Virus record (IMG/VR): IMGVR_UViG_3300048851_000137
Span: 1 to 51,124 of that record
Origin: a virus
Length of the DNA: 51,124 nt
Direction: 5' to 3' (one strand)
Below the pieces are notes generated by a model. It had not been told where the DNA came from. It saw only the letters and a list, made by a program, of their open reading frames with translations, and ran no database searches. Within the stretch, counting starts at the first letter, position 1, and every line of letters begins with the position of its first letter. Both the position numbers and the translations under genes were made by a program. Shown piece after piece: positions 4,340 to 51,124 of the stretch.

Positions 4340-4600
4340 ATCGGTCCCGCCCGGACGCAGTTCTCCCGCCGCAGAAAGCCTTGCGGTTTTTCAGCCCGAG
4401 CACTAAATTCGAGAGGTCATTGTTTCTCTCGGCCTGACGGGCGCCAACCCGCTAGTGCTCGCGATGTAAGGGTCGTTCCTGAGAGGGGGCGGCCTTTCTT
4501 CGTTTCTGGCCGCCGGATTGCGGGCCGGCAGTATGATGCCTGCACTGCCGCGCCTCCGCAACTAAACCATTGAAGACGCTATAAATACCTCTTCCGGCAC

Positions 4601-4660
4601 CCCGGAGTTCCGGTTATCCGACATATCGGTTGACCGGAGTACCGGAAGCTCGGATAGTCG
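4601..4660. promoter_or_regulatory. parA upstream repeat cluster with inverted centromere-like core
   Basis: CCGGAGTTCCGG, TTATCCGACATATCGG (4614-4629, reverse complement of CCGATATGTCGGATAA), CCGGAGTACCGG and CGGATAGTCGG lie directly before the parA ATG at 4665. Confidence 0.6.
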
Positions 4661-4664
4661 GCGC

Positions 4665-5363
4665 ATGGCACCTCCAATCCTCGTATTGGCCAGCACAAAG
4701 GGCGGCGTTGGCAAGACAACGCTGGCTTTCTGCCTGGCCACAGAACTCGCGCGCCGACTATCCGAAAGTCCGGATAACCGGGACTCCGATATGTCGGATA
4801 ATCGGGGTGTCGAATGCATAGACGCTGACCCGAATCAGACGCTCTATCAGGCCGTCCGCCGCGGTAAGCCGCCCGGGGTGCGTGCGGAGGTCGCCAACGG
4901 CGAAAACCTCCTGGCCGCAGTGGGAGAGGCGAGCCGACGGGCCGCTCTGGTGGTCATCGATCTGGAGGGCTCGGCCAACCAAGCCATGCTCTATGCCTGC
5001 GGCAAAGCCAGTCTGGTGCTGATCCCCGCCCAGCCGTCGCTATTCGATGTGGTCGAGGCCATGAAAACGCACGCCGTCGTGGAGCAGGCGGCGGATCTGA
5101 CCCGGCGCGAAATTGCTGCCCGCGTGGTTCTGTCGCGTACACCGGTCCTGCGGCAGCGAGTGGTCGAACATAGCCGGAAGCAGTTCGCCGAACGCGGGCT
5201 GCCCATGCTCTCGGCCGAGCTGATGGAACGAACTGCCTTCCGCCTGATGACCTATACCGGCACCCCGCCATGGGAGGATGACCCTGAGGGCGGCGCCGCG
5301 GGCAATGTCACCGCTCTCGGTGATGAGGTCGCCGGCCTGCTGGGGCTCTCGACCAATGGGTAA
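4665..5363 (+). CDS. parA: ParA/Soj-family partition ATPase (small, type Ib-like)
   Basis: Deviant Walker A LASTKGGVGKTTLAF; IDADPNQT; 232 aa. Contains an unusual insert LSESPDNRDSDMSDNRG encoded by the centromere-like repeat. Confidence 0.9.
   Translation: MAPPILVLASTKGGVGKTTLAFCLATELARRLSESPDNRDSDMSDNRGVECIDADPNQTLYQAVRRGKPPGVRAEVANGENLLAAVGEASRRAALVVIDLEGSANQAMLYACGKASLVLIPAQPSLFDVVEAMKTHAVVEQAADLTRREIAARVVLSRTPVLRQRVVEHSRKQFAERGLPMLSAELMERTAFRLMTYTGTPPWEDDPEGGAAGNVTALGDEVAGLLGLSTNG
4786..4801 (+). repeat. Centromere-like core CCGATATGTCGGATAA inside the parA coding sequence
   Basis: Same 15-16-nt core as at 5665-5679, 5811-5825 and (inverted) 4614-4629. Flanked by TATCCGA and TCCGGATAA submotifs. 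Confidence 0.7.
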
Positions 5364-5664
5364 GCGCCCGATGCCGGCCATCCCGGATATTGGAGATGAT
5401 GAGCTTCGCCAGCGGCTACAGCCCTTGGCCGACCGCGTCCTGCCTCGCCAGTCGGCGCCCGCCCAGGCTCAGCCGAGCAAGCCTCGCCGCCAAGGGATGG
5501 AGTTCATGCTGCCCGAGCCGGTCGCGCTGGAGATCAAGACCAGGGCAGCACGGCGGCAGATATCAGCCACAACGCTGATGTTGGAGGTGCTGCGCGACGC
5601 AGGCTTCCCCGTGGTGCCTGCTGATTTCGTTGACCTTCGGAAGCTGCCCCGGAAGTCCGGATAG
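5356..5664 (+). CDS. Ribbon-helix-helix-type centromere-binding protein (ParG/ParB-like partner of type Ib ParA)
   Basis: ATG 5356 overlaps the parA 3' end by 8 nt. 102 aa: a disordered basic N-terminus, then MEFMLPEPVALEIKTRAARRQISATTLMLEVLRDAGF, a beta-alpha-alpha pattern. Confidence 0.6.
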   Translation: MGKRPMPAIPDIGDDELRQRLQPLADRVLPRQSAPAQAQPSKPRRQGMEFMLPEPVALEIKTRAARRQISATTLMLEVLRDAGFPVVPADFVDLRKLPRKSG

Positions 5665-5854
5665 CCGATATGTCGGATATTCGGTTATCCGAAATTCCGA
5701 CTATCCGAGTATCCGAGTATCGCGATACTGGAGGTGCTGCGCGACGCAGGCATCGCCGTTGTGCCTGCTGATTCATTGACCTTCGAAAGCTATCCCGGAA
5801 GTCCGGATAGCCGATATGTCGGATATTAGGTTATCCGAAATTCCGACTGTCCGG
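5582..5854 (+). repeat. Two ~125-bp direct repeats (5582-5707 and 5729-5853, period 146-147 bp), each carrying the centromere-like core
   Basis: Hand alignment gives about 90% identity with one 1-nt indel. Copy 1 includes the last ~27 codons of the RHH gene. Cores CCGATATGTCGGATA at 5665-5679 and 5811-5825. Extra TATCCGAG repeats at 5701-5720. Confidence 0.85.
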
Positions 5855-5928
5855 ATATAGCCTCGCCCCCTCGTTTGATCGGCCGCCCAAGCCTGGATAG
5901 GGAACGCGAGCCCAGCTAGATTAGAAGG

Positions 5929-6645
5929 ATGAAGAACGCGAGTGAGATCGCCTATTGCATCGCATCAATGGAGAACGACTTCGATTTATTCGAAGGAATC
6001 GTTCGGAGTTGGCTTACTGCAGATCTTCCTCCTCCCGGGAAAGCGTCAAGGGATCAGACCTTTGGGTCCTTCTCGCGAGTACTAGATAGCCTTGAACGGA
6101 GAGTGGGGATCAAGCTTAAGCACCGGGACGAATTCGAGGAGTATCTCAAAAGCGACAAACAGGAGGATTGGCAGCGGATATTCACTGCAGCTCTGCCGGG
6201 GATACGTAAAGAGGTCCTTGATGTTGTCACCGCTGCACTTCTGGCGCTACCCGAGCCGTCGTGGCTCAATCTTTTACCGCCGCCCTTCACAGCGCAGGTT
6301 CAGTCACTATTACGCTCGGGCCATTATCTAAGCGCAGTCCGGCAAGGTTGTGACGCGGTTCGAGCGTTGATGCGTGAAAAGACAGGATTCCACGACCTGG
6401 ATGCAACTGAGCTGGTAAACAAAGCCTACGGCAAAGATGGTCAGTTCAAGCTCGCCGCTTGGGAGGGTCATTCGCTGGACAGTGTCTGGCGCGGGTACGC
6501 CGATATGCTGCGCGGAGCTATGACAGGCATCCGCAATGCCCACTACCACGGTACAGACGAGATTGATGAGGCTGAGGCGTCACGCCTTTTGGTGATCTTG
6601 GGAACTCTTTGGTTGCGCGTAGAGGGCACTACGAAGGTCGGGTAG
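5929..6645 (+). CDS. Protein with C-terminal TIGR02391/Hypoth_Ymh-like domain and an unrecognised N-terminal half
   Basis: 238 aa in an AT-richer island. The C-terminal region FTAQVQSLLRSGHYLSAVRQGCDAVRALMREKTG...LRGAMTGIRNAHYHG..EAEASRLLVILGTLWLRV fits the Ymh pattern (GHY..AV, G.RN..aH, eA...L) as I remember it. Confidence 0.6.
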   Translation: MKNASEIAYCIASMENDFDLFEGIVRSWLTADLPPPGKASRDQTFGSFSRVLDSLERRVGIKLKHRDEFEEYLKSDKQEDWQRIFTAALPGIRKEVLDVVTAALLALPEPSWLNLLPPPFTAQVQSLLRSGHYLSAVRQGCDAVRALMREKTGFHDLDATELVNKAYGKDGQFKLAAWEGHSLDSVWRGYADMLRGAMTGIRNAHYHGTDEIDEAEASRLLVILGTLWLRVEGTTKVG

Positions 6646-6773
6646 GCATTCCAGGCGCTGGTTCCGTCGGTGCCGGCACCGCGACGTTCGTTTGATCGTC
6701 AGCCATTGGTCGCCTCTAGCCCCTCCCATGTTTTACGGGTGATCACAAAAGGAGCGCGGTCAGGCAGTTGCCA

Positions 6774-7631
6774 CTACGCACCAAAAATAGCTTCGCTAAT
6801 TCGGGAGATTTCCCGCGCCTTCACAACGTAAGCAAGATTCATCCGGACATCTGTGGCAACCTTAATGCCAGCATCCTGCGGAATGTTTGTGGGGATAGGC
6901 ACGATTGTTACTATTCCATTTTCGGAAATCCGAGGCCCGCCCCAAACTATTCCAAGCAAGCAGGCGCGTTCACCGACGGTGATGGTCCCATTTGACTTAT
7001 TGGATAAATACGGCCCTCTTCCCAAGAAAAATACTGGAGAGCCTGAAGATCCTGAGAACAGGGCGGCATCCACCACGAACTCTGGCTTTCCGTTGTAGTC
7101 GATAGCTAGATGAGATGCGGTGACGCCTGCGCGGAAAAGCGGAAACCCGTGCTTCTGATCCCACTGCCCATTCGGACAGCCCACCATAACGACTTGTTCA
7201 AGAATATCACTGTTATGTATTTGCTCTTGAGTAGCAAAAACCGATTCATCCAACCAAACAACGTAAATTTTCTTGCCGGCGTTTGCCTTCTCCCAATCTA
7301 TAATAGCTTTATCAAGTGAGATTGCCGCTAAATCAACTTCTGGGTCAGGATGATAAGCGATCCCGCAGTTAATATTAACCATCAAATTGATGACCACCGG
7401 CGTTTCGGCGATAAGATCGTTTTCAATGATATGAAATGCTATGCGGAAATATGTAGCGTTAGCCACAACATGTCTATTCGTCACTAAGACCGGCAGTTTG
7501 AATTCTTTACTTTTTGACTCCAGTATAAAGCTGGAGCCAGTTCCTATCCAAGCCCTCTCACTGTTGCCGCCTTCGACTCGTTTCACAGCATACATAAGCT
7601 GTTCCGCGGTGGTTTGAGGCTTGAAAGGCAT
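6774..7631 (-). CDS. Trypsin-like (chymotrypsin-fold) serine peptidase, predicted cytoplasmic
   Basis: ATG 7631 with GGAG 9 nt upstream (the track ORF extends to GTG 7676). Catalytic motifs VLVTNRHVV (His), EVDLAAISL (Asp) and SGSSGSPVFF (Ser). No signal peptide or TM segment is visible. Confidence 0.8.
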   Translation of the reverse strand: MPFKPQTTAEQLMYAVKRVEGGNSERAWIGTGSSFILESKSKEFKLPVLVTNRHVVANATYFRIAFHIIENDLIAETPVVINLMVNINCGIAYHPDPEVDLAAISLDKAIIDWEKANAGKKIYVVWLDESVFATQEQIHNSDILEQVVMVGCPNGQWDQKHGFPLFRAGVTASHLAIDYNGKPEFVVDAALFSGSSGSPVFFLGRGPYLSNKSNGTITVGERACLLGIVWGGPRISENGIVTIVPIPTNIPQDAGIKVATDVRMNLAYVVKAREISRISEAIFGA

Positions 7632-7738
7632 GCTGCAGCTCCAGCGTTGAAGATGCAAAGTATCCCGCGCCGACACGTGCTGCGCCAGCCTTGGCCAAAA
7701 TCAACCCTCACGCCGCTGCCCGCTTGTTAGGCCATCCG

Positions 7739-8011
7739 TCACGCGCCTTCTTCTGGGAACATCGGCAACTGCCCCGCAACTTTGCAGCACGCGTTCCAGA
7801 AACGCTTCGCTGCAGTATCTTGGGAAAGCCCTGGCGCTACCCTAAGGAATGGCTCTTCACCCAATCCTATCTCAAGCCAGACCTTGCCCTCTGGGTCGCT
7901 GAAATTCAGACGCGGAGGTTTGGCTCGCGTTACCTCAAGAATGGTCCGCATCCACGGCCTGGTCTGAATCGAACGCTCGGAACTTTCTTGGTTCGTTTGA
8001 TCGTCAGGCAT
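7739..8011 (-). CDS. Hypothetical 90-aa protein between the recombinase-like gene and the protease
   Basis: ATG 8011 overlaps the upstream gene end by 8 nt. MPDDQTNQESSERSIQTRPWMRTILEV.... No recognisable motif. Confidence 0.3.
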   Translation of the reverse strand: MPDDQTNQESSERSIQTRPWMRTILEVTRAKPPRLNFSDPEGKVWLEIGLGEEPFLRVAPGLSQDTAAKRFWNACCKVAGQLPMFPEEGA

Positions 8012-8612
8012 TGCGGCCTCCAAATCGCGGGGTGCCTCGGGCGCCGAAGCTGCGGTAGAGCGTGCGGACCGCCACATTGAGTTGCGATGCGATCGCCGCG
8101 GCGGAGAGGTCGGGATTGGCCCAGGCGGCCCGCGCTTCCTGCAGCGCCTTGCCGGCCAGGGCAGGCCGCGGCCCGGCCGTGATGCCCAGCTCTGCGCGCC
8201 GGCCCCGGGCCTTGGCGGCTCTCTCCCGCTGCCCCTGGCTCTCTGCCCGTTCGGCCAGTGCGATGGCGCGCAGGGCGTCCGGATGCCAGCGCACCAGGTC
8301 GCCAGTCGCGGCGTCGCGCACCGATGCCCCGGCCGCCGTCACCTCGGTTAGGGCGCGCAGCACATCCGCCCGGGTGGCGCCCAGCCGCGCCGCGCTCTCT
8401 ACCACCAGCTCGTCACCCTCGCGCAGGGCCTTGATGGCAGCGGAGCGCGCAGGGGAGGGGTCGGCGCCGGCCTTCGGGCGCTTCGGCTGCCGGTCGATAT
8501 AGAGGGAGCCGGCGGTCAGGCTGGGCTCGGCAAGGCCGGCTGCTACCAGCGCGGCGTGCTGCTCATCCTCGCTCGCGCCGGCCTTGGTGATGCGGATGTA
8601 TCCGATCTGCAC
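8004..8612 (-). CDS. Serine recombinase (resolvase/invertase) homologue with degenerate active site
   Basis: MQIGYIRITK vs the family GYxRVSTxxQ (Thr at the nucleophile position). GDELVVESAARLGAT vs GDxLVVxxLDRLGR. C-terminal HTH AAIASQLNVAVRTLYRSF. Confidence 0.75.
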   Translation of the reverse strand: MQIGYIRITKAGASEDEQHAALVAAGLAEPSLTAGSLYIDRQPKRPKAGADPSPARSAAIKALREGDELVVESAARLGATRADVLRALTEVTAAGASVRDAATGDLVRWHPDALRAIALAERAESQGQRERAAKARGRRAELGITAGPRPALAGKALQEARAAWANPDLSAAAIASQLNVAVRTLYRSFGARGTPRFGGRNA

Positions 8613-8881: not shown

Positions 8882-8981
8882 GACGGTCTCCTGAATGAGG
8901 TAAGAAATCGTGACTGAACTTCGGCTACTCACAACTGCTCAACTCGGCGAGATTGGACTTGGCGGGCGGAGAGTTAAAACG

Positions 8982-9362
8982 ATGGAGAAACGACCGGCCC
9001 GCATCCTTTATGTTGAGGATGAGGACTTGCTTCATTTCCTGATTATCGAAGAACTTGCAGACCAAGGCTTTCAGGTTCTGTCTGCCTGGAACGGAGACGA
9101 AGCAATCGGTATTATCAACAACGGTGTACCGTTTGATGTTTTGGTAACCGACGTTCGAATGCCGGGGTCTGCCAACGGTATCGATGTCGCAAAATACGTT
9201 CGAACTCACCATCCGGAATGCCCGATTATCATCGTGTCGGGCTACTTTGGTGATACAGGCGAGGATGTTCGGAACCTGATGCCGCCAGTGGTATTCCAAC
9301 CCAAGCCCTATCGCTTGACCGAGTTGGTCGACTGCATTCGTCAGATGACGACTACGCGCTAA
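8982..9362 (+). CDS. Stand-alone response-regulator receiver (CheY-like) domain protein
   Basis: MEKRPARILYVEDEDLL (acidic pocket), DVLVTDVRMPG (phospho-acceptor Asp), IIIVSGY, QPKPY (Lys). 126 aa, no output domain. Confidence 0.85.
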   Translation: MEKRPARILYVEDEDLLHFLIIEELADQGFQVLSAWNGDEAIGIINNGVPFDVLVTDVRMPGSANGIDVAKYVRTHHPECPIIIVSGYFGDTGEDVRNLMPPVVFQPKPYRLTELVDCIRQMTTTR

Positions 9363-9407: not shown

Positions 9408-10334
9408 TTAGTGGTGGTGCGCCCGGGAAGCGTTCCACGCCTTCCACAGGTCTTCGATCAGCGCCTTCGACATGACGCGTCGGGCATCGTTATGCCGGTG
9501 TCCGAGGGTCCACTCGCGGGTCTCGGTGTGCGCCTTCCGCCGGGCGTAGATCTCGCCATAGGGGCCAGATGGCCCTGCGGGTTGATCTTCCTTCTCGGCA
9601 CGCCATTGATGGCGGAACATGCTGTCGGACAGCAGCGTCCAGACCTCGGCGCGGCGATGCGGGCTGTACCCGTGAGCTGCTGCGGCCTCGGCGCCTGCCT
9701 TGCGCTGCTGCCGCTCACCCTCGATCACGGCCAAGCCTAAGCGCTTCCACAGGCGTTCCTTCGTAGCGTAGTTGGAAAGGTCGCCAGACTCGCCAACGAT
9801 GATAGCTAAACCGAGATCGCCAAGTCCTTTGATCTGCGCAACCCAAGTCCACACGGGAAGGCTGCGGGCAATCTGGCGCATCTTCTTCTCGACCTGAGCC
9901 CGGTGCTTGTCCCATGCATCACGGGATTGGGCAGATAGGAGGATGATTGGGGTGAGGGAGGCGAGGGCACCGCCAGCAGGGTTCCCAACCATCAATTGGC
10001 CCTCGCCTCCCTTTTCCACCGCCTTTCGGGCCATGGAAGCTTTCTTGAACAACGCGACGCGTTGCTTCGCATCAAGGCTATTCGAGTATCCTAGATAGCG
10101 CGCGATCAGCGCCTCGGTAGAGCGGTCGCAACGGCTTTGCGATTTGATGCAGAACGTCCGCTGCGACTGAAGCTCCGCCAAGGCGCTGACCACCGGAGAC
10201 AGGTGCATGGTGGAGTTGGCTTGCGCACTTTCGGTGGCCTCTGTCTCGTTTAGTGCGGCGGGAGGGGGTGCCTCCGCGCCGCCGGGGGGCACGTCATCGG
10301 TGGTTGTCACGGATTCACTGGCCCCCCAACTCAT
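9408..10334 (-). CDS. IS110-family transposase C-terminal (Transposase_20-like) domain protein lacking the N-terminal DEDD/RuvC-like domain
   Basis: WVAQIKGLGDLGLAIIVGESGDLSNYATKERLWKRLGLAV...HGYSPHRRAEVW...ARRVMSKALIEDLWKAW resembles the HhH/Tnp domain of IS110 transposases. No GIDvsK-type N-terminus. ATGA overlap with the upstream gene. Confidence 0.55.
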   Translation of the reverse strand: MSWGASESVTTTDDVPPGGAEAPPPAALNETEATESAQANSTMHLSPVVSALAELQSQRTFCIKSQSRCDRSTEALIARYLGYSNSLDAKQRVALFKKASMARKAVEKGGEGQLMVGNPAGGALASLTPIILLSAQSRDAWDKHRAQVEKKMRQIARSLPVWTWVAQIKGLGDLGLAIIVGESGDLSNYATKERLWKRLGLAVIEGERQQRKAGAEAAAAHGYSPHRRAEVWTLLSDSMFRHQWRAEKEDQPAGPSGPYGEIYARRKAHTETREWTLGHRHNDARRVMSKALIEDLWKAWNASRAHHH

Positions 10335-24881: not shown

Positions 24882-26183
24882 ATGCCCAACCTGGCGCATG
24901 TGGCGGCGCGCATCTTCGGCACGCCGCTGCTGATGCATGAGGCGAAGCTGCACGCCATCCTGGGTGGCCTCGGCCCCCGGCTCGGTCTGCAGCCGCAGGC
25001 CTTCGACGACGACGAAGGGGGCAGGGGCTCCCGCCCCCCTCAGCGCCCCTATCTGGTGACCGGCAGCGGGGTGGCCATCATCCCGGTGGTCGGCATCCTG
25101 GTGAACCGGGCTGGGCAGATCACCCCGGACAGCCAGGAGCTGCGGTCCTACAGCACCATCCTCCGCGACATGGCCATGGCCGATGCCGATCCGGCGGTGC
25201 GCGGCATGGTTTTCGATGTCGATAGCCCCGGCGGTGAATGCGCCAACGCCTTCGAGCTGTCGGCGAAGATCCGCAGCATGCGCGGCCGCAAGCCCATGAT
25301 CGCCGTCGCCAATGGCTACGCCTATTCGGCGGCCTATGCCGTGGCCTCGGCGGCGGATCAGATTTGGCTGCCGGAATCCGGCGGCGTCGGGTCGATCGGC
25401 ATCGTCGCGGTGCATGTCGACCAGTCGAAGCGCGACGCCCAGCAGGGCCTGGCCTTCGACTACATCTTCGCCGGCAGCAAGAAGGTCGACGGGCACAGCC
25501 ACGCCCCGCTCAGTGAAGGCGCTCGCGCCGACCTGCTGGGCGAGGTGCAGCGCCTCTACGGCATGTTCACCAGCCTCGTGGCCGCAAATCGCGGCATCAG
25601 CGAGGCCGAAGCTCGGGCGACAGAGGCCGGCTGCTTCTACGGCAGCAAGGCTATTTCCGCCCGCCTTGCCGATCGCATCGGCACCCTTTCCGAAGCCGTG
25701 ACCGAAGTCGCCCGGCTTGCGGATGCAGCGGCCACCAGCGCGCCAGGCGGCTTGTCGCCGCGCGACAACACCAGCTTGGGAAACAACATGACCCAGTCCA
25801 ATTCCACCGCCCCCGACGCCGCCGAGGGCGCGCCCGTGATCGCCGCCGGCACCACGACCCAGCCGCCGGCCGGTGCCCCGCAGGGGGCCGCCCAGCCCGG
25901 TACCGCGGCGCCGGGCCTGACCGCCGAGGATTGCGCCGCCATCGCCGAGATCTGTGCCCTGGCCGGCCGGGCGGGGGAAGCGCCGGGCTTCATCCGTGCC
26001 GGCAAGACCCGCGGCGAGGTGTCCGAGGCGCTGCTGCGCGCCCGGGCCACGACCCAGGAGCAGACGCCCATCAGCGGGGCGCACGGCATCGCCGAAGCGA
26101 CCGGCACCCGCAGCGCCGATCCCGCCGATCCACACGGCTGGAATGCCTCCACCGACCGCGTTTGCGGCAAGCAGGGGATCTGA
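24882..26183 (+). CDS. S49-family (ClpP-fold) prohead protease/scaffold, lambda gpC-like
   Basis: VRGMVFDVDSPGGECANAFELSAKI...IAVANGYAYSAAYAVASAADQIWLPESGGVGSIGIV. Ala/Pro-rich C-terminal extension. Confidence 0.88.
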   Translation: MPNLAHVAARIFGTPLLMHEAKLHAILGGLGPRLGLQPQAFDDDEGGRGSRPPQRPYLVTGSGVAIIPVVGILVNRAGQITPDSQELRSYSTILRDMAMADADPAVRGMVFDVDSPGGECANAFELSAKIRSMRGRKPMIAVANGYAYSAAYAVASAADQIWLPESGGVGSIGIVAVHVDQSKRDAQQGLAFDYIFAGSKKVDGHSHAPLSEGARADLLGEVQRLYGMFTSLVAANRGISEAEARATEAGCFYGSKAISARLADRIGTLSEAVTEVARLADAAATSAPGGLSPRDNTSLGNNMTQSNSTAPDAAEGAPVIAAGTTTQPPAGAPQGAAQPGTAAPGLTAEDCAAIAEICALAGRAGEAPGFIRAGKTRGEVSEALLRARATTQEQTPISGAHGIAEATGTRSADPADPHGWNASTDRVCGKQGI

Positions 26184-49040: not shown

Positions 49041-49775
49041 TCAAGGCGGGGATAATCCCTCGCCCGTCGCAATACCCAGCGGCACCTCAAAGCGGCGGCG
49101 GGCCAGCGCGTAGCATTCGCAGGCGGCGTTCTCGAGCCCCTGGCGGTCCGTGATGGTGATGGTGCCCCGTCCAGTGCGGATATGGCCACCCTGCTGCAGC
49201 CGGCCCAAGGCGATGCTGGCGCCAGGACGGTGGACGCAAAGCATCATAGCCAGGATGTCATGGGTTATCGGCACATCATCGCTCTCCGCGCGATCATGTG
49301 CCATCAGGAGCCAGCGGGCCAGGCGCCGTTCCAGCACATGCCGGCCATTGCAGACGGCGGTCTGCGCGACCTCCTCGTTGACGGCCAGGGCATAGCGTAG
49401 CAGCAGGGCACGAAGGCTGGGACAGCGCTCCAGCGCATTGCGGAACGCCTCCGCGTTCATCCGCAGCGCGGTGCCCGGACCCTGCACGAGGCCCTCGGTC
49501 GAGCTGATATCCCCACCAAAGAGCAGGGGCAGGCCGATCATGCCCTCCTGACCGGCATGCCCGACCTCGGCCGTGCCACCATCCGCGAGCAGGTGGATCA
49601 GCGAGACCCACCCACTCTCGGGGAAATACACGGCGGTGATCGGCTGCTCTGCTGGTTGGAGAACCTGGCGAAAAGTAAGCTCAACCCGCTCCATCTGCGG
49701 CAGCAGCATGCTCAGCTCAGCAGGCGGCAAACTGGCCAGCAGGTGACTATGGTGCAGGACTTGCAGGTTGGCCAT
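49041..49775 (-). CDS. Crp/Fnr-family transcriptional regulator, paralogue 3 of 4
   Basis: 244 aa from ATG 49775 (MANLQVLHH...). HTH is CVHRPGASIALGRLQQGGHIRTGRGTITITDRQGLE. Confidence 0.8.
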   Translation of the reverse strand: MANLQVLHHSHLLASLPPAELSMLLPQMERVELTFRQVLQPAEQPITAVYFPESGWVSLIHLLADGGTAEVGHAGQEGMIGLPLLFGGDISSTEGLVQGPGTALRMNAEAFRNALERCPSLRALLLRYALAVNEEVAQTAVCNGRHVLERRLARWLLMAHDRAESDDVPITHDILAMMLCVHRPGASIALGRLQQGGHIRTGRGTITITDRQGLENAACECYALARRRFEVPLGIATGEGLSPP

Positions 49776-50004
49776 GGGGCCTCCCGGTCGACGGTGTCGG
49801 CGGGAGTACCCCACTCTCTGTCGCCTGCGCCGGAAGGTCGCTGCAGGCGATCCTGCCTGTTAACAGAGGGCCAATGCCTGCTCGGTACGTTATCGTACGC
49901 CGGAGGCGGTTCGGGTATGAATAGGCACGTAGGTCCACGAATTATCGGCCCGTCCCCCACAGGTCGGCCTTTGCCTTACGCGTTTCCGAATTGCGGCTTA
50001 TCGC

Positions 50005-50733
50005 TTAGCCCTTCGCAATACCGAGCAGGGTCTCAAAGCGGCGCCGGACCGTGCCGTAGCACTCGCAGGTGGCCTCCTCGAGCCCCTGGCGATCGGTGAT
50101 CGTGATGCTGCCTCGGTTCGCGCGGATATGACCCGCCTTCTGGAAATGCCCGACGGCGATGGTGACGCCGGAGCGCTGGACACACAGCATCATCGCCAGG
50201 AATTCCTGGGTCATCGGGACTTCGTCCCCATCCGCGCGGTCATGCGCCATCAGCAGCCAGCGCGCCAGCCGCTGCTGCAGCACATGCCGGCCGTTGCAGG
50301 CGGCGGTCTGCGCCACCTCCTCATTGAAGGCCAGGGCATAGCGCAGCAGCAGTGCCTGGAAATCCGGGCAGCGCTCCAGCCCATAACGGAAAGCCTCCGC
50401 GCTCATGCGCAGGGCGGTTCCCGGGGCCTGCACCAAGCCTTCGGACGTTGCCGTATCCACCCCAAAGAGCAAGGGGAGCCCCAGCATACCCTCTCTGCCG
50501 GCATGCCCAACCTCGGCCGCGCCACCATCGGCGAGCAGGTTGATGATCGAGACCCATCCCGCCTCCGGGAAATGGACGCTGGTGATCGGCTGTTCCGGGC
50601 GCTGAAGAACCTGCCGCAAGGTCAGTTCGACCCGCTCCATGCGCGGTAGCAGAATGGCCAGTTCACGGGATGGCAAGGCAGCCAGCAGGAGGTTGCTCGG
50701 CTGTGCAGGGTGCAGATCAAGGACATTGGACAT
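50005..50733 (-). CDS. Crp/Fnr-family transcriptional regulator, paralogue 4 of 4
   Basis: 242 aa from ATG 50733 (MSNVLDLHPAQ..., same N-terminus as paralogue 2). HTH is CVQRSGVTIAVGHFQKAGHIRANRGSITITDRQGLE. Confidence 0.8.
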   Translation of the reverse strand: MSNVLDLHPAQPSNLLLAALPSRELAILLPRMERVELTLRQVLQRPEQPITSVHFPEAGWVSIINLLADGGAAEVGHAGREGMLGLPLLFGVDTATSEGLVQAPGTALRMSAEAFRYGLERCPDFQALLLRYALAFNEEVAQTAACNGRHVLQQRLARWLLMAHDRADGDEVPMTQEFLAMMLCVQRSGVTIAVGHFQKAGHIRANRGSITITDRQGLEEATCECYGTVRRRFETLLGIAKG

Positions 50734-50971
50734 GGGGAGCATTCCAGTCGACGGTGTCGGCGGGAGCGCTCTACTCTCAGTCGCCTGCGCCGGATTGGTC
50801 GCTGCAAGCGATCCTGCCTGTTAACACAGGGCCAATGCCTGCTCGGTACGTTACCGTACGCCCGAGGCAGTTCGGGTATGAACAGGCACGCAGGCGCCCC
50901 CTTATCGGGCCCAGTATAGCTTTGTGGGTGCATGCCTGATTTGGCTTCTGCCTCAGGCACACAGCGAGCTG

Positions 50972-51124
50972 TCAGTGATGCGTCCGAGAATAGGTGGAGG
51001 GACGCCCTACCTTTGCGGCTGAATGCAATTCCGCTTCTTCAAAACGGATGGCGGCTGCCCGATAGACGGCTGCCAACTTTGAATAGGCCTCTCGGCATGC
51101 GATGGATGCCGGTACTCCAGCTTC
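50972..51124 (-). CDS. C-terminal part of the junction-spanning 91-aa hypothetical ORF (51052-51124 duplicates 1-73)
   Basis: Manual translation continues ...AAIRFEEAELHSAAKVGRPSTYSRTHH, with TGA stop at 50974-50972. Confidence 0.4.
   Translation of the reverse strand, partial: EAGVPASIACREAYSKLAAVYRAAAIRFEEAELHSAAKVGRPSTYSRTHH
51052..51124. repeat. Terminal overlap copy 2 (identical to 1-73)
   Basis: Same 73-nt string as positions 1-73. Confidence 0.95.

Follow-up and report, generated by a model that had tools for sequence, protein, structure and literature searches.

A variable cargo site beside the partition (par) locus of IMGVR_UViG_3300048851_000137 (positions 1–51,124 of this IMG/VR virus record, 51,124 nucleotides, the whole stretch analysed and hereafter 'the window') carries two convergent genes, one for a 238-aa HEPN protein of the Ymh/TIGR02391 family (5929–6645, + strand) and one for a 285-aa stand-alone, predicted cytoplasmic serine protease of the trypsin fold (PA clan; 6774–7631, − strand). 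Judged from sequence, the site probably holds two independently acquired single-gene candidates for abortive infection (Abi) or exclusion, not a new multi-gene module. The genes are bracketed separately by copies of a short boundary repeat, they differ in G+C content (GC; 0.545 for the Ymh gene, 0.472 for the protease gene), and they co-occur at 0/165 protease loci and 0/5 Ymh loci. Both families are already catalogued, and their combination is a one-off juxtaposition. A phage-plasmid that bears two lone exclusion candidates at a well-delimited variable position would make a clean example, and one that guards against over-reading adjacency as a 'system' now that protease–nuclease pairs are topical.

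Co-occurrence was assessed from both sides. With a hidden Markov model of the Ymh C-terminal region (153 sequences), searches were made of the six-frame open reading frames (ORFs) at 165 protease loci (80 from genomes, with 8-kb flanks, 82 from metagenomes and three further loci); the window ORF, serving as positive control, scored 4.9e-44, and no Ymh gene was found beside the protease at any of the 165 (E≤1 in the 80 and the 82, E≤0.01 in the three). Conversely, no protease of the window's type (PDC-S45, see below) was found at five distinct loci of Ymh relatives, where close homologues are solitary, lying near a ParE toxin gene (L083), adjoining an ISL3 transposase gene (L084) or amid housekeeping genes (L085–87); this set also takes in two viral contigs. 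The earlier note on this DNA, made from the letters alone, had read the two genes as parts of one undescribed sensor/effector module, a view that it held open to refutation should their homologues never co-localise. No co-localisation was seen from either side, and the module is therefore not borne out; 'undescribed', too, claimed too much, both families having been catalogued before. What stands is the link of the two main gene families to phage defence, the protease matching PDC-S45 over its full length and Ymh being a recognised HEPN family.

The composition and layout of the site agree in separating the two genes. Overall GC of the replicon is 0.647, and the 2-kb interval of least GC in the contig, at 0.52, begins at 5601; the mean of such intervals is 0.649 (standard deviation 0.036). 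The low-GC block, the contig's GC minimum, spans about 5.7–7.99 kb. An AT-rich island had been proposed for 5929–8612; the drop in composition is real, and the hand counts offered for it (26/60 G+C at 7321–7380, 52/60 at 25861–25920) are exact, but the block stops near 7990, not at 8612, as follows from the GC of the individual genes. Third-codon-position GC (GC3) is 0.59 in the Ymh gene and 0.479 in the protease gene, and a 90-aa ORF upstream of the latter (7739–8011, −) has GC 0.557 and GC3 0.58, whereas the resolvase-like gene that follows (8004–8612, −) is the top of the neighbourhood at GC 0.741 and GC3 0.84. At 74% GC, and conserved in related replicons, this last gene is therefore backbone and lies outside the island. 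To the left the island is bounded by a par centromere-like array of CCGGATA/TCGGATA repeats with an 8-nt period, found by repeat search at 5649–5860.

Three copies of the boundary repeat, all read on the + strand, mark the segments in between. Copy a (5871–5881) consists of the 11-nt core TCGTTTGATCG with degenerate flanks and lies 48 nt upstream of the Ymh start; copy b, TTCGTTTGATCGTCAGCCATTG (6687–6708), falls in the 128-nt spacer of the convergent Ymh and protease genes; and copy c, TTCGTTTGATCGTCAGGCATTG (7992–8013), overlaps both the stop codon of the resolvase-like gene (8006–8004) and the ATG of the 90-aa ORF (8011–8009). Copies b and c are identical at 21/22 positions, differing at one C/G position, where none would be expected by chance, and the core has three exact copies in 51 kb against 0.01 expected. 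The Ymh gene is thus bracketed apart from the segment that holds the protease gene and the 90-aa ORF.

That this site, with the par centromere on one side and a backbone gene on the other, is a genuine cargo position, as had been supposed, is evident from a related replicon (L174) whose content at the site differs. L174 carries a resolvase-like fragment 92% identical to that of the window, together with a convergent parA, and holds between the two some 9 kb of unrelated cargo; the Ymh and protease genes are absent. In a blastn comparison the window and L174 are 82% identical over 7991–8503, the match stopping exactly at copy c; the other end of the homology lies at 8897, before a response-regulator gene.

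The protease is counted at 285 aa from the Met at which all homologues start, the ORF itself being 300 aa. It matches the PADLOC profile PDC-S45 (E 1.2e-76, 255.5 bits, ORF residues 19–297 on profile positions 12–283 of 293), phrog_7688 (E 3.7e-46), to which PHROGs assigns no function, and Trypsin_2 (E 1e-8). The motifs TNRHV, DLAAISL and GSSGSPVF are all present, and H54, D100 and S198 are invariant in an alignment of 117 homologues. No signal peptide or transmembrane segment was found (top 19-residue Kyte-Doolittle mean 1.46), and the enzyme is predicted to be cytoplasmic; its first description, as a trypsin-fold protease convergent to the Ymh gene with intact His/Asp/Ser motifs and no export signal, is borne out. 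Set against PDC-S45, a single-gene phage defence candidate, the window protein agrees in its full-length match, bare trypsin-fold domain, invariant triad and stand-alone gene with variable neighbours, a gene often borne by prophages and plasmids or placed within R-M (restriction–modification) loci, and differs in nothing structural, although this copy is at most 42% identical to others and comes from a phage-plasmid whose host is Acetobacteraceae-like.

The AlphaFold2 (AF2) model of the protease (pLDDT 92.8) is a single chymotrypsin-fold domain, a double beta-barrel, whose Foldseek neighbours are DegS/DegQ, V8/Esp and TEV/3C (E 5e-7 to 1e-5, TM-score 0.45–0.53, 9–19% identity); profile matches to PDB sequences were weak. 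HtrA/DegS/DegQ and V8/Esp, the closest solved folds, share the chymotrypsin fold and the same triad order, but the window protease lacks their signal peptide, PDZ domain and propeptide, and identity is 13–19%. A housekeeping identity of the HtrA/DegP type was ruled out on the lack of a hydrophobic N-terminus and of any PDZ match, and on a TIGR02037 score of 13 bits against a cut-off of 416.

Proteases of this type are widespread. A word-indexed search of a 5.8-billion-protein collection returned 307 relatives, nearly all of 270–320 aa, the nearest only 42% identical and a few bearing a C-terminal SEC-C motif; a genome scan placed relatives in hundreds of species of Bacteroidota, Bacillota, Pseudomonadota, Planctomycetota, candidate phyla and archaea. 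The sole mention of PDC-S45 found in the literature is a PADLOC annotation in prophages of S. meliloti (Sinorhizobium) (PMC12429752). For this candidate family, with more than 300 homologues in bacteria and archaea, the simple 285-aa copy in the window would be a convenient test case.

Neighbourhoods of the protease vary widely. All-against-all clustering of up to three ORFs per side at the 80 genome loci found the commonest neighbour family in only 4/80, and the protease is without a conserved neighbour or obligatory partner. Pooled profiles from the neighbour scan show Type I restriction–modification (R-M) specificity and restriction subunit genes as recurrent neighbours, with integrases and HipA likewise among them; five homologues (L003, L006, L027, L032 and L074) adjoin shared neighbour families that match Type I specificity or restriction-subunit profiles. 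The Type I R-M gene neighbourhood is a classic site for solitary Abi-type genes. Elsewhere the gene adjoins a cI/Cro-type switch (L173), capsid, AlpA and AAA_25 genes (L169) or genuine resolvases (L081, L171), and in a 55.5-kb Bacillus paranthracis phage-plasmid it is solitary, between tail genes and integrase/lysis genes. Given these varied and mobile settings of its closest relatives, the protease is a promiscuous stand-alone cargo gene.

Other candidate partners were considered and rejected. In the window, as at the two closest long-contig homologues (L081, L082), a stand-alone receiver gene is found no more than 1.5 kb from the protease, yet the three receivers are mutually only 28–29% identical, one of them is in a chromosomal housekeeping context, and the association is missing in the wider family. 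The receivers near the protease in L081 and L082 are unrelated, and the association is weak. Searched with phmmer for relatives of the window's response regulator, of its resolvase-like protein and of the upstream ORF in its 112-aa form, the protease loci gave only sporadic response regulators. The resolvases of L081 and L171 are no more than about 27% identical to the window's gene, which in any case is backbone, and the uncharacterised genes beside the protease in L082, L169, L171 and L173 show no relationship with the Ymh protein or with one another.

The 238-aa protein comprises an N-terminal domain (residues 1–106) and a HEPN domain (about residues 118–232). PF09509 (Hypoth_Ymh) matches residues 122–226 (E 5.6e-14, 52.5 bits, cut-off 25) and TIGR02391 scores 39.7 bits, marginally over its cut-off of 39.45, so that the C-terminal family fit proposed when the ORF was first described is confirmed by both profiles. 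The motif R202-N-A-H-Y-H207 fits the HEPN signature Rx4-6H; an alignment of 99 family members shows R202 and H207 in every sequence and N203 conserved to 90% or more. Ymh (PF09509) has been classed among the HEPN families, with its Rx4-6H motif stated to be conserved and its domains occurring solo or fused to pMORC, AbiJ-NTD1 or AbiTii, and also in R-M operons (Anantharaman et al. 2013, PMC3710099). The window protein resembles this family in its C-terminal Rx4H domain, in the presence of a variable N-terminal domain and in being a solitary gene in a mobile context; a literature search under TIGR02391 found nothing.

The family is also tied to characterised defence. The PADLOC profiles Aga_HEPN and PD-Lambda-3_B are matched by 97/99 of the aligned members, and PD-lambda-3 is experimentally validated and acts as an Abi system (PMC13190303). 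PD-lambda-3 is, however, a two-gene system (A and B), to which the window protein offers only a weak B-like C-terminal match (E 1.1e-4); the PD-Lambda-3_A model matched none of the five proteins scanned against PADLOC, nor did the ORFs at 3–12 kb, which take in the island and its flanks, include an A subunit or an Argonaute gene.

The N-terminal half is where the Ymh protein departs from what has been described. Residues 1–120 match no family, being unlike pMORC, AbiJ-NTD1, AbiTii or any Pfam family, in line with the note's view that some 120 residues were unrecognisable. An exhaustive HMMER scan of 1.84 billion representatives recovered 214 Ymh relatives, of which a single one (P0123, 252 aa, 48% identity) extends over the N-terminal half; the others match the HEPN domain only. 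In the AF2 model, which is all-helical (pLDDT 91.7), residues 4–106 form an N-terminal four-helix unit. Foldseek matches to HEPN structures were all weak and non-significant, at E>0.3 (Csm6 4rgp, AF_0298 2hsb, AbiV 9bj7 and HEPN toxin 7ae8), fold searches against the PDB and BFVD gave no match at E≤0.001, and nothing was found when the Ymh profile was searched against PDB sequences. By sequence, then, the four-helix domain is a near-orphan, lying outside the described partner domains, and might define a new trigger specificity; together with the boundary repeat at the dead-recombinase gene it is what appears mildly novel here.

How the two genes would act is inferred from sequence and by analogy, and this applies alike to the RNase activity, the protease activity, the triggers, the targets and the antiphage phenotype. 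The Ymh protein would be a latent, metal-independent RNase in which HEPN dimerisation forms the Rx4H active site, and its N-terminal four-helix domain would keep the RNase off until a phage-derived or stress cue arrives. Once released, it would cleave RNA and arrest the infected cell, in abortive infection or exclusion, much as other HEPN Abi proteins and PD-lambda-3 do. The protease, acting alone, may on superinfection cleave a protein of the host or of the incoming phage, as Lit does. Lit, of the e14 prophage, is a single-gene abortive infection protein, triggered by the Gol peptide and directed at EF-Tu. The likeness is one of concept only, that of a prophage-borne, cytoplasmic, single-gene protease aborting the growth of a superinfecting phage; Lit is a zinc metalloprotease, of a fold unrelated to the trypsin fold of the window protein. 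In either case the gain to the resident phage-plasmid would be that competing phages are kept out.

Several points weigh against the reading of two independent exclusion genes. The Ymh protein clears the TIGR02391 cut-off only barely and matches the PADLOC HEPN profiles weakly (E 1e-4, or 1.1e-4 for PD-Lambda-3_B, and 9e-4), and co-occurrence from the Ymh side was assessed at five distinct loci only. A bare protease domain without a sensor leaves specificity and control unexplained, and no experimental test of PDC-S45 was found in the literature. Moreover, a protease adjoining a nuclease-type protein is the very layout of recently described protease–effector modules, so that a local functional link between the Ymh protein and the protease is conceivable.

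Such a link would most directly take the form of cleavage of the Ymh protein by the protease, for example by stripping the four-helix N-terminal domain, which would activate a latent HEPN RNase. The idea is conceivable because nuclease proenzymes activated by a partner trypsin-like protease have been described (PMC12799240, PMC12642450); the two genes are, in addition, adjacent, 128 nt apart and both of foreign composition, and the extra N-terminal domain has no assigned role. If true, a protease-activated HEPN would be a new effector class for the trypsin-MBL/Pepco/EACC1 logic. The known modules are nevertheless built otherwise: their protease is fused to a sensor, with the effector gene immediately adjacent, and in the trypsin-MBL pairs (Hachiman/AVAST/Lamassu) the effector lies upstream on the same strand and co-evolves with the protease (PMC12799240, PMC12642450). 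The window resembles the trypsin-MBL, Pepco, EACC1 and alpha/beta-hydrolase modules in that a trypsin-like protease adjoins a nuclease-type protein in a defence-type context, but its protease is bare, the genes are convergent and do not form one operon, the neighbour is a HEPN protein, which is not among the reported effector partners (the word is absent from PMC12799240 and PMC12642450), and co-occurrence is nil from either side (0/165 and 0/5). With the difference in GC (0.545 vs 0.472) and a copy of the boundary repeat between the genes, activation of the one product by the other is very improbable. Slighter still is the chance that the partner is instead the 90-aa ORF, which might encode a latent effector or regulator cleaved by the protease in a two-gene unit. 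This ORF lies on the same strand, 107 nt upstream, in the same repeat-bounded segment and at a similar foreign GC (0.557), and Pepco-type effectors are small and encoded directly upstream of their protease (PMC12642450). On the other hand it has no family match, including Pfam at E≤0.1, no homologue at 162 protease loci or in plasmids, and no hydrophobic segment (maximum 19-residue Kyte-Doolittle mean 0.65); the closest protease loci have unrelated upstream genes or none, and because the repeat supplies its start codon the junction may have created the ORF incidentally.

A further alternative would have the genes serve the biology of the replicon itself, the HEPN protein as a post-segregational-killing toxin beside par and the protease in regulation or processing, for instance of a repressor. 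Their position directly beside the partition locus suits this view, as do the frequency of HEPN domains among the toxins of toxin–antitoxin systems (PMC3710099), the close Ymh homologue near a ParE toxin gene and the protease homologues beside cI/Cro-type switches. Yet the Ymh gene has no candidate antitoxin beside it, whether MNT or another small ORF, the related replicon L174 lacks both genes, and the protease family is spread over all phyla and archaea in unrelated contexts, Type I R-M loci included, which makes it a poor fit to a replicon-specific housekeeping role. We regard this alternative as improbable, and return to two separately acquired exclusion candidates as the favoured account of the site.

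The boundary repeat has features of its own. Its start falls within the final codons of the resolvase-like gene. Copy b, read on the minus strand, gives ATG GCT GAC GAT CAA ACG AAC and has the stop/start junction of copy c, but opens an ORF of only 25 codons. An in-frame ATG followed by D-Q-T-N/R codons is present in 6/7 repeat copies, counting three from the window and four from L174. In L174 the four core copies (7696–7706, 8451–8461, 8901–8911 and 9197–9207) share one orientation, against 0.3 copies expected. On the minus strand the core reads CGATCAAACGA; in both the window and L174 it keeps one orientation and sits at the borders of cargo segments, downstream of the resolvase-like gene. 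In a more distant replicon (L176) the three genes after the resolvase-like gene begin VADDTKT, MADDRHQT and MADRTT, and each overlaps the preceding gene by 8–11 nt.

From these sequences the repeat is read as a reused stop/start junction, and it may act as a short-homology or att-like patch, or be a scar, of cargo exchange. A bolder proposal, tentative and in our estimation unlikely, is that the repeat at the dead-resolvase gene represents an undescribed phage-plasmid cassette-exchange site, possibly with the dead recombinase as its site-binding factor. The repeat unit, a stop/start junction together with M-x-D-D-Q-T-N codons, would then be the point at which single-gene cargo, in this case the two defence candidates, is inserted or swapped. 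If general, such a repeat beside a dead-recombinase gene would show how cargo sites of this kind come to be refilled.

The resolvase-like gene (8004–8612, −) encodes a degenerate derivative of a serine recombinase that keeps the C-terminal helix-turn-helix (HTH), as judged from GC, homologues and motif alignment. The Resolvase model scores 33.5 bits for the window gene against 116–127 bits for genuine neighbour resolvases, the catalytic Ser is replaced by Thr, and DRLGR has become ARLGA; the degeneracy claimed for it at the outset is accordingly confirmed, but the gene is not a member of the island in which it had been placed. Homologues share 92, 75, 57, 48 and 47% identity, those of related replicons 75–92%, and across the clade the nucleophile position reads T/T/D/S/T/S (window first), with DRLGR lost and the HTH conserved. 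The protein is very probably not an active recombinase, and probably binds DNA only. The clade of recombinase derivatives lacking catalytic residues (P0273–P0279) occurs in phage and phage-plasmid backbones; nothing was found when viral contigs were searched for the resolvase-like protein and the 22-mer.

Overlapping this gene by 8 nt, as had been correctly noted, is the 90-aa ORF (7739–8011, −; 112 aa if read from an ATG at 8077), whose status as a gene is uncertain. It has no match in Pfam (E≤0.1), NCBIfam, PADLOC or PHROGs, no tblastn match in plasmids and no homologue in the 162 protease loci; its start codon sits within copy c of the repeat.

Beyond the site, the first 74 nt of the contig recur at 51051–51124, and this terminal overlap of 74 nt indicates that the assembly is circular and the replicon complete, at about 51,050 bp. 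It codes for a DnaB-type helicase, a small terminase and a tape-measure protein, and has a ParA ATPase gene at 4665–5363; on this combination it is a tailed phage-plasmid. Its only relatives at the DNA level in annotated collections are two Roseomonas plasmids, 74–76% identical to 5500–5683 beside their own ParA, which suggests a host of Acetobacteraceae type. Nothing was found for the island DNA among phage sequences.

The par locus is itself repetitive. A second CCGGATA/TCGGATA array with an 8-nt period lies at 4590–4810, around the parA start, and the centromere-like arrays thus flank on both sides parA and a 128-aa ORF in the ParB position (5278–5664), for which profile searches found no family match. 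A tandem duplication of 147 bp (5569–5712 and 5716–5858, about 90% identical) is a copy of the 3′ end of this ORF.

Across the backbone gene from the island lies a separate low-GC gene (8982–9362, +; GC 0.509), the third of foreign composition. It encodes a single-domain response-regulator receiver (PF00072, E 1.2e-14) resembling CpdR and the CckA receiver, although at 53.9 bits it falls far under the NCBIfam CpdR cut-off of 180. Adjoining it is a 308-aa ORF (9408–10334, −) with a weak match to IS110/IS116 transposases (Pfam E 0.014, phrog_4285 1.1e-12). Finally, four paralogous genes lie across the circular junction (778–1650, 2246–2974, 49041–49814 and 50005–50742, all on the − strand), each with 76–78% DNA identity to one and the same cNMP-binding/Crp-type regulator gene of L174; four Crp-like regulators are an unusual count for a phage-plasmid.

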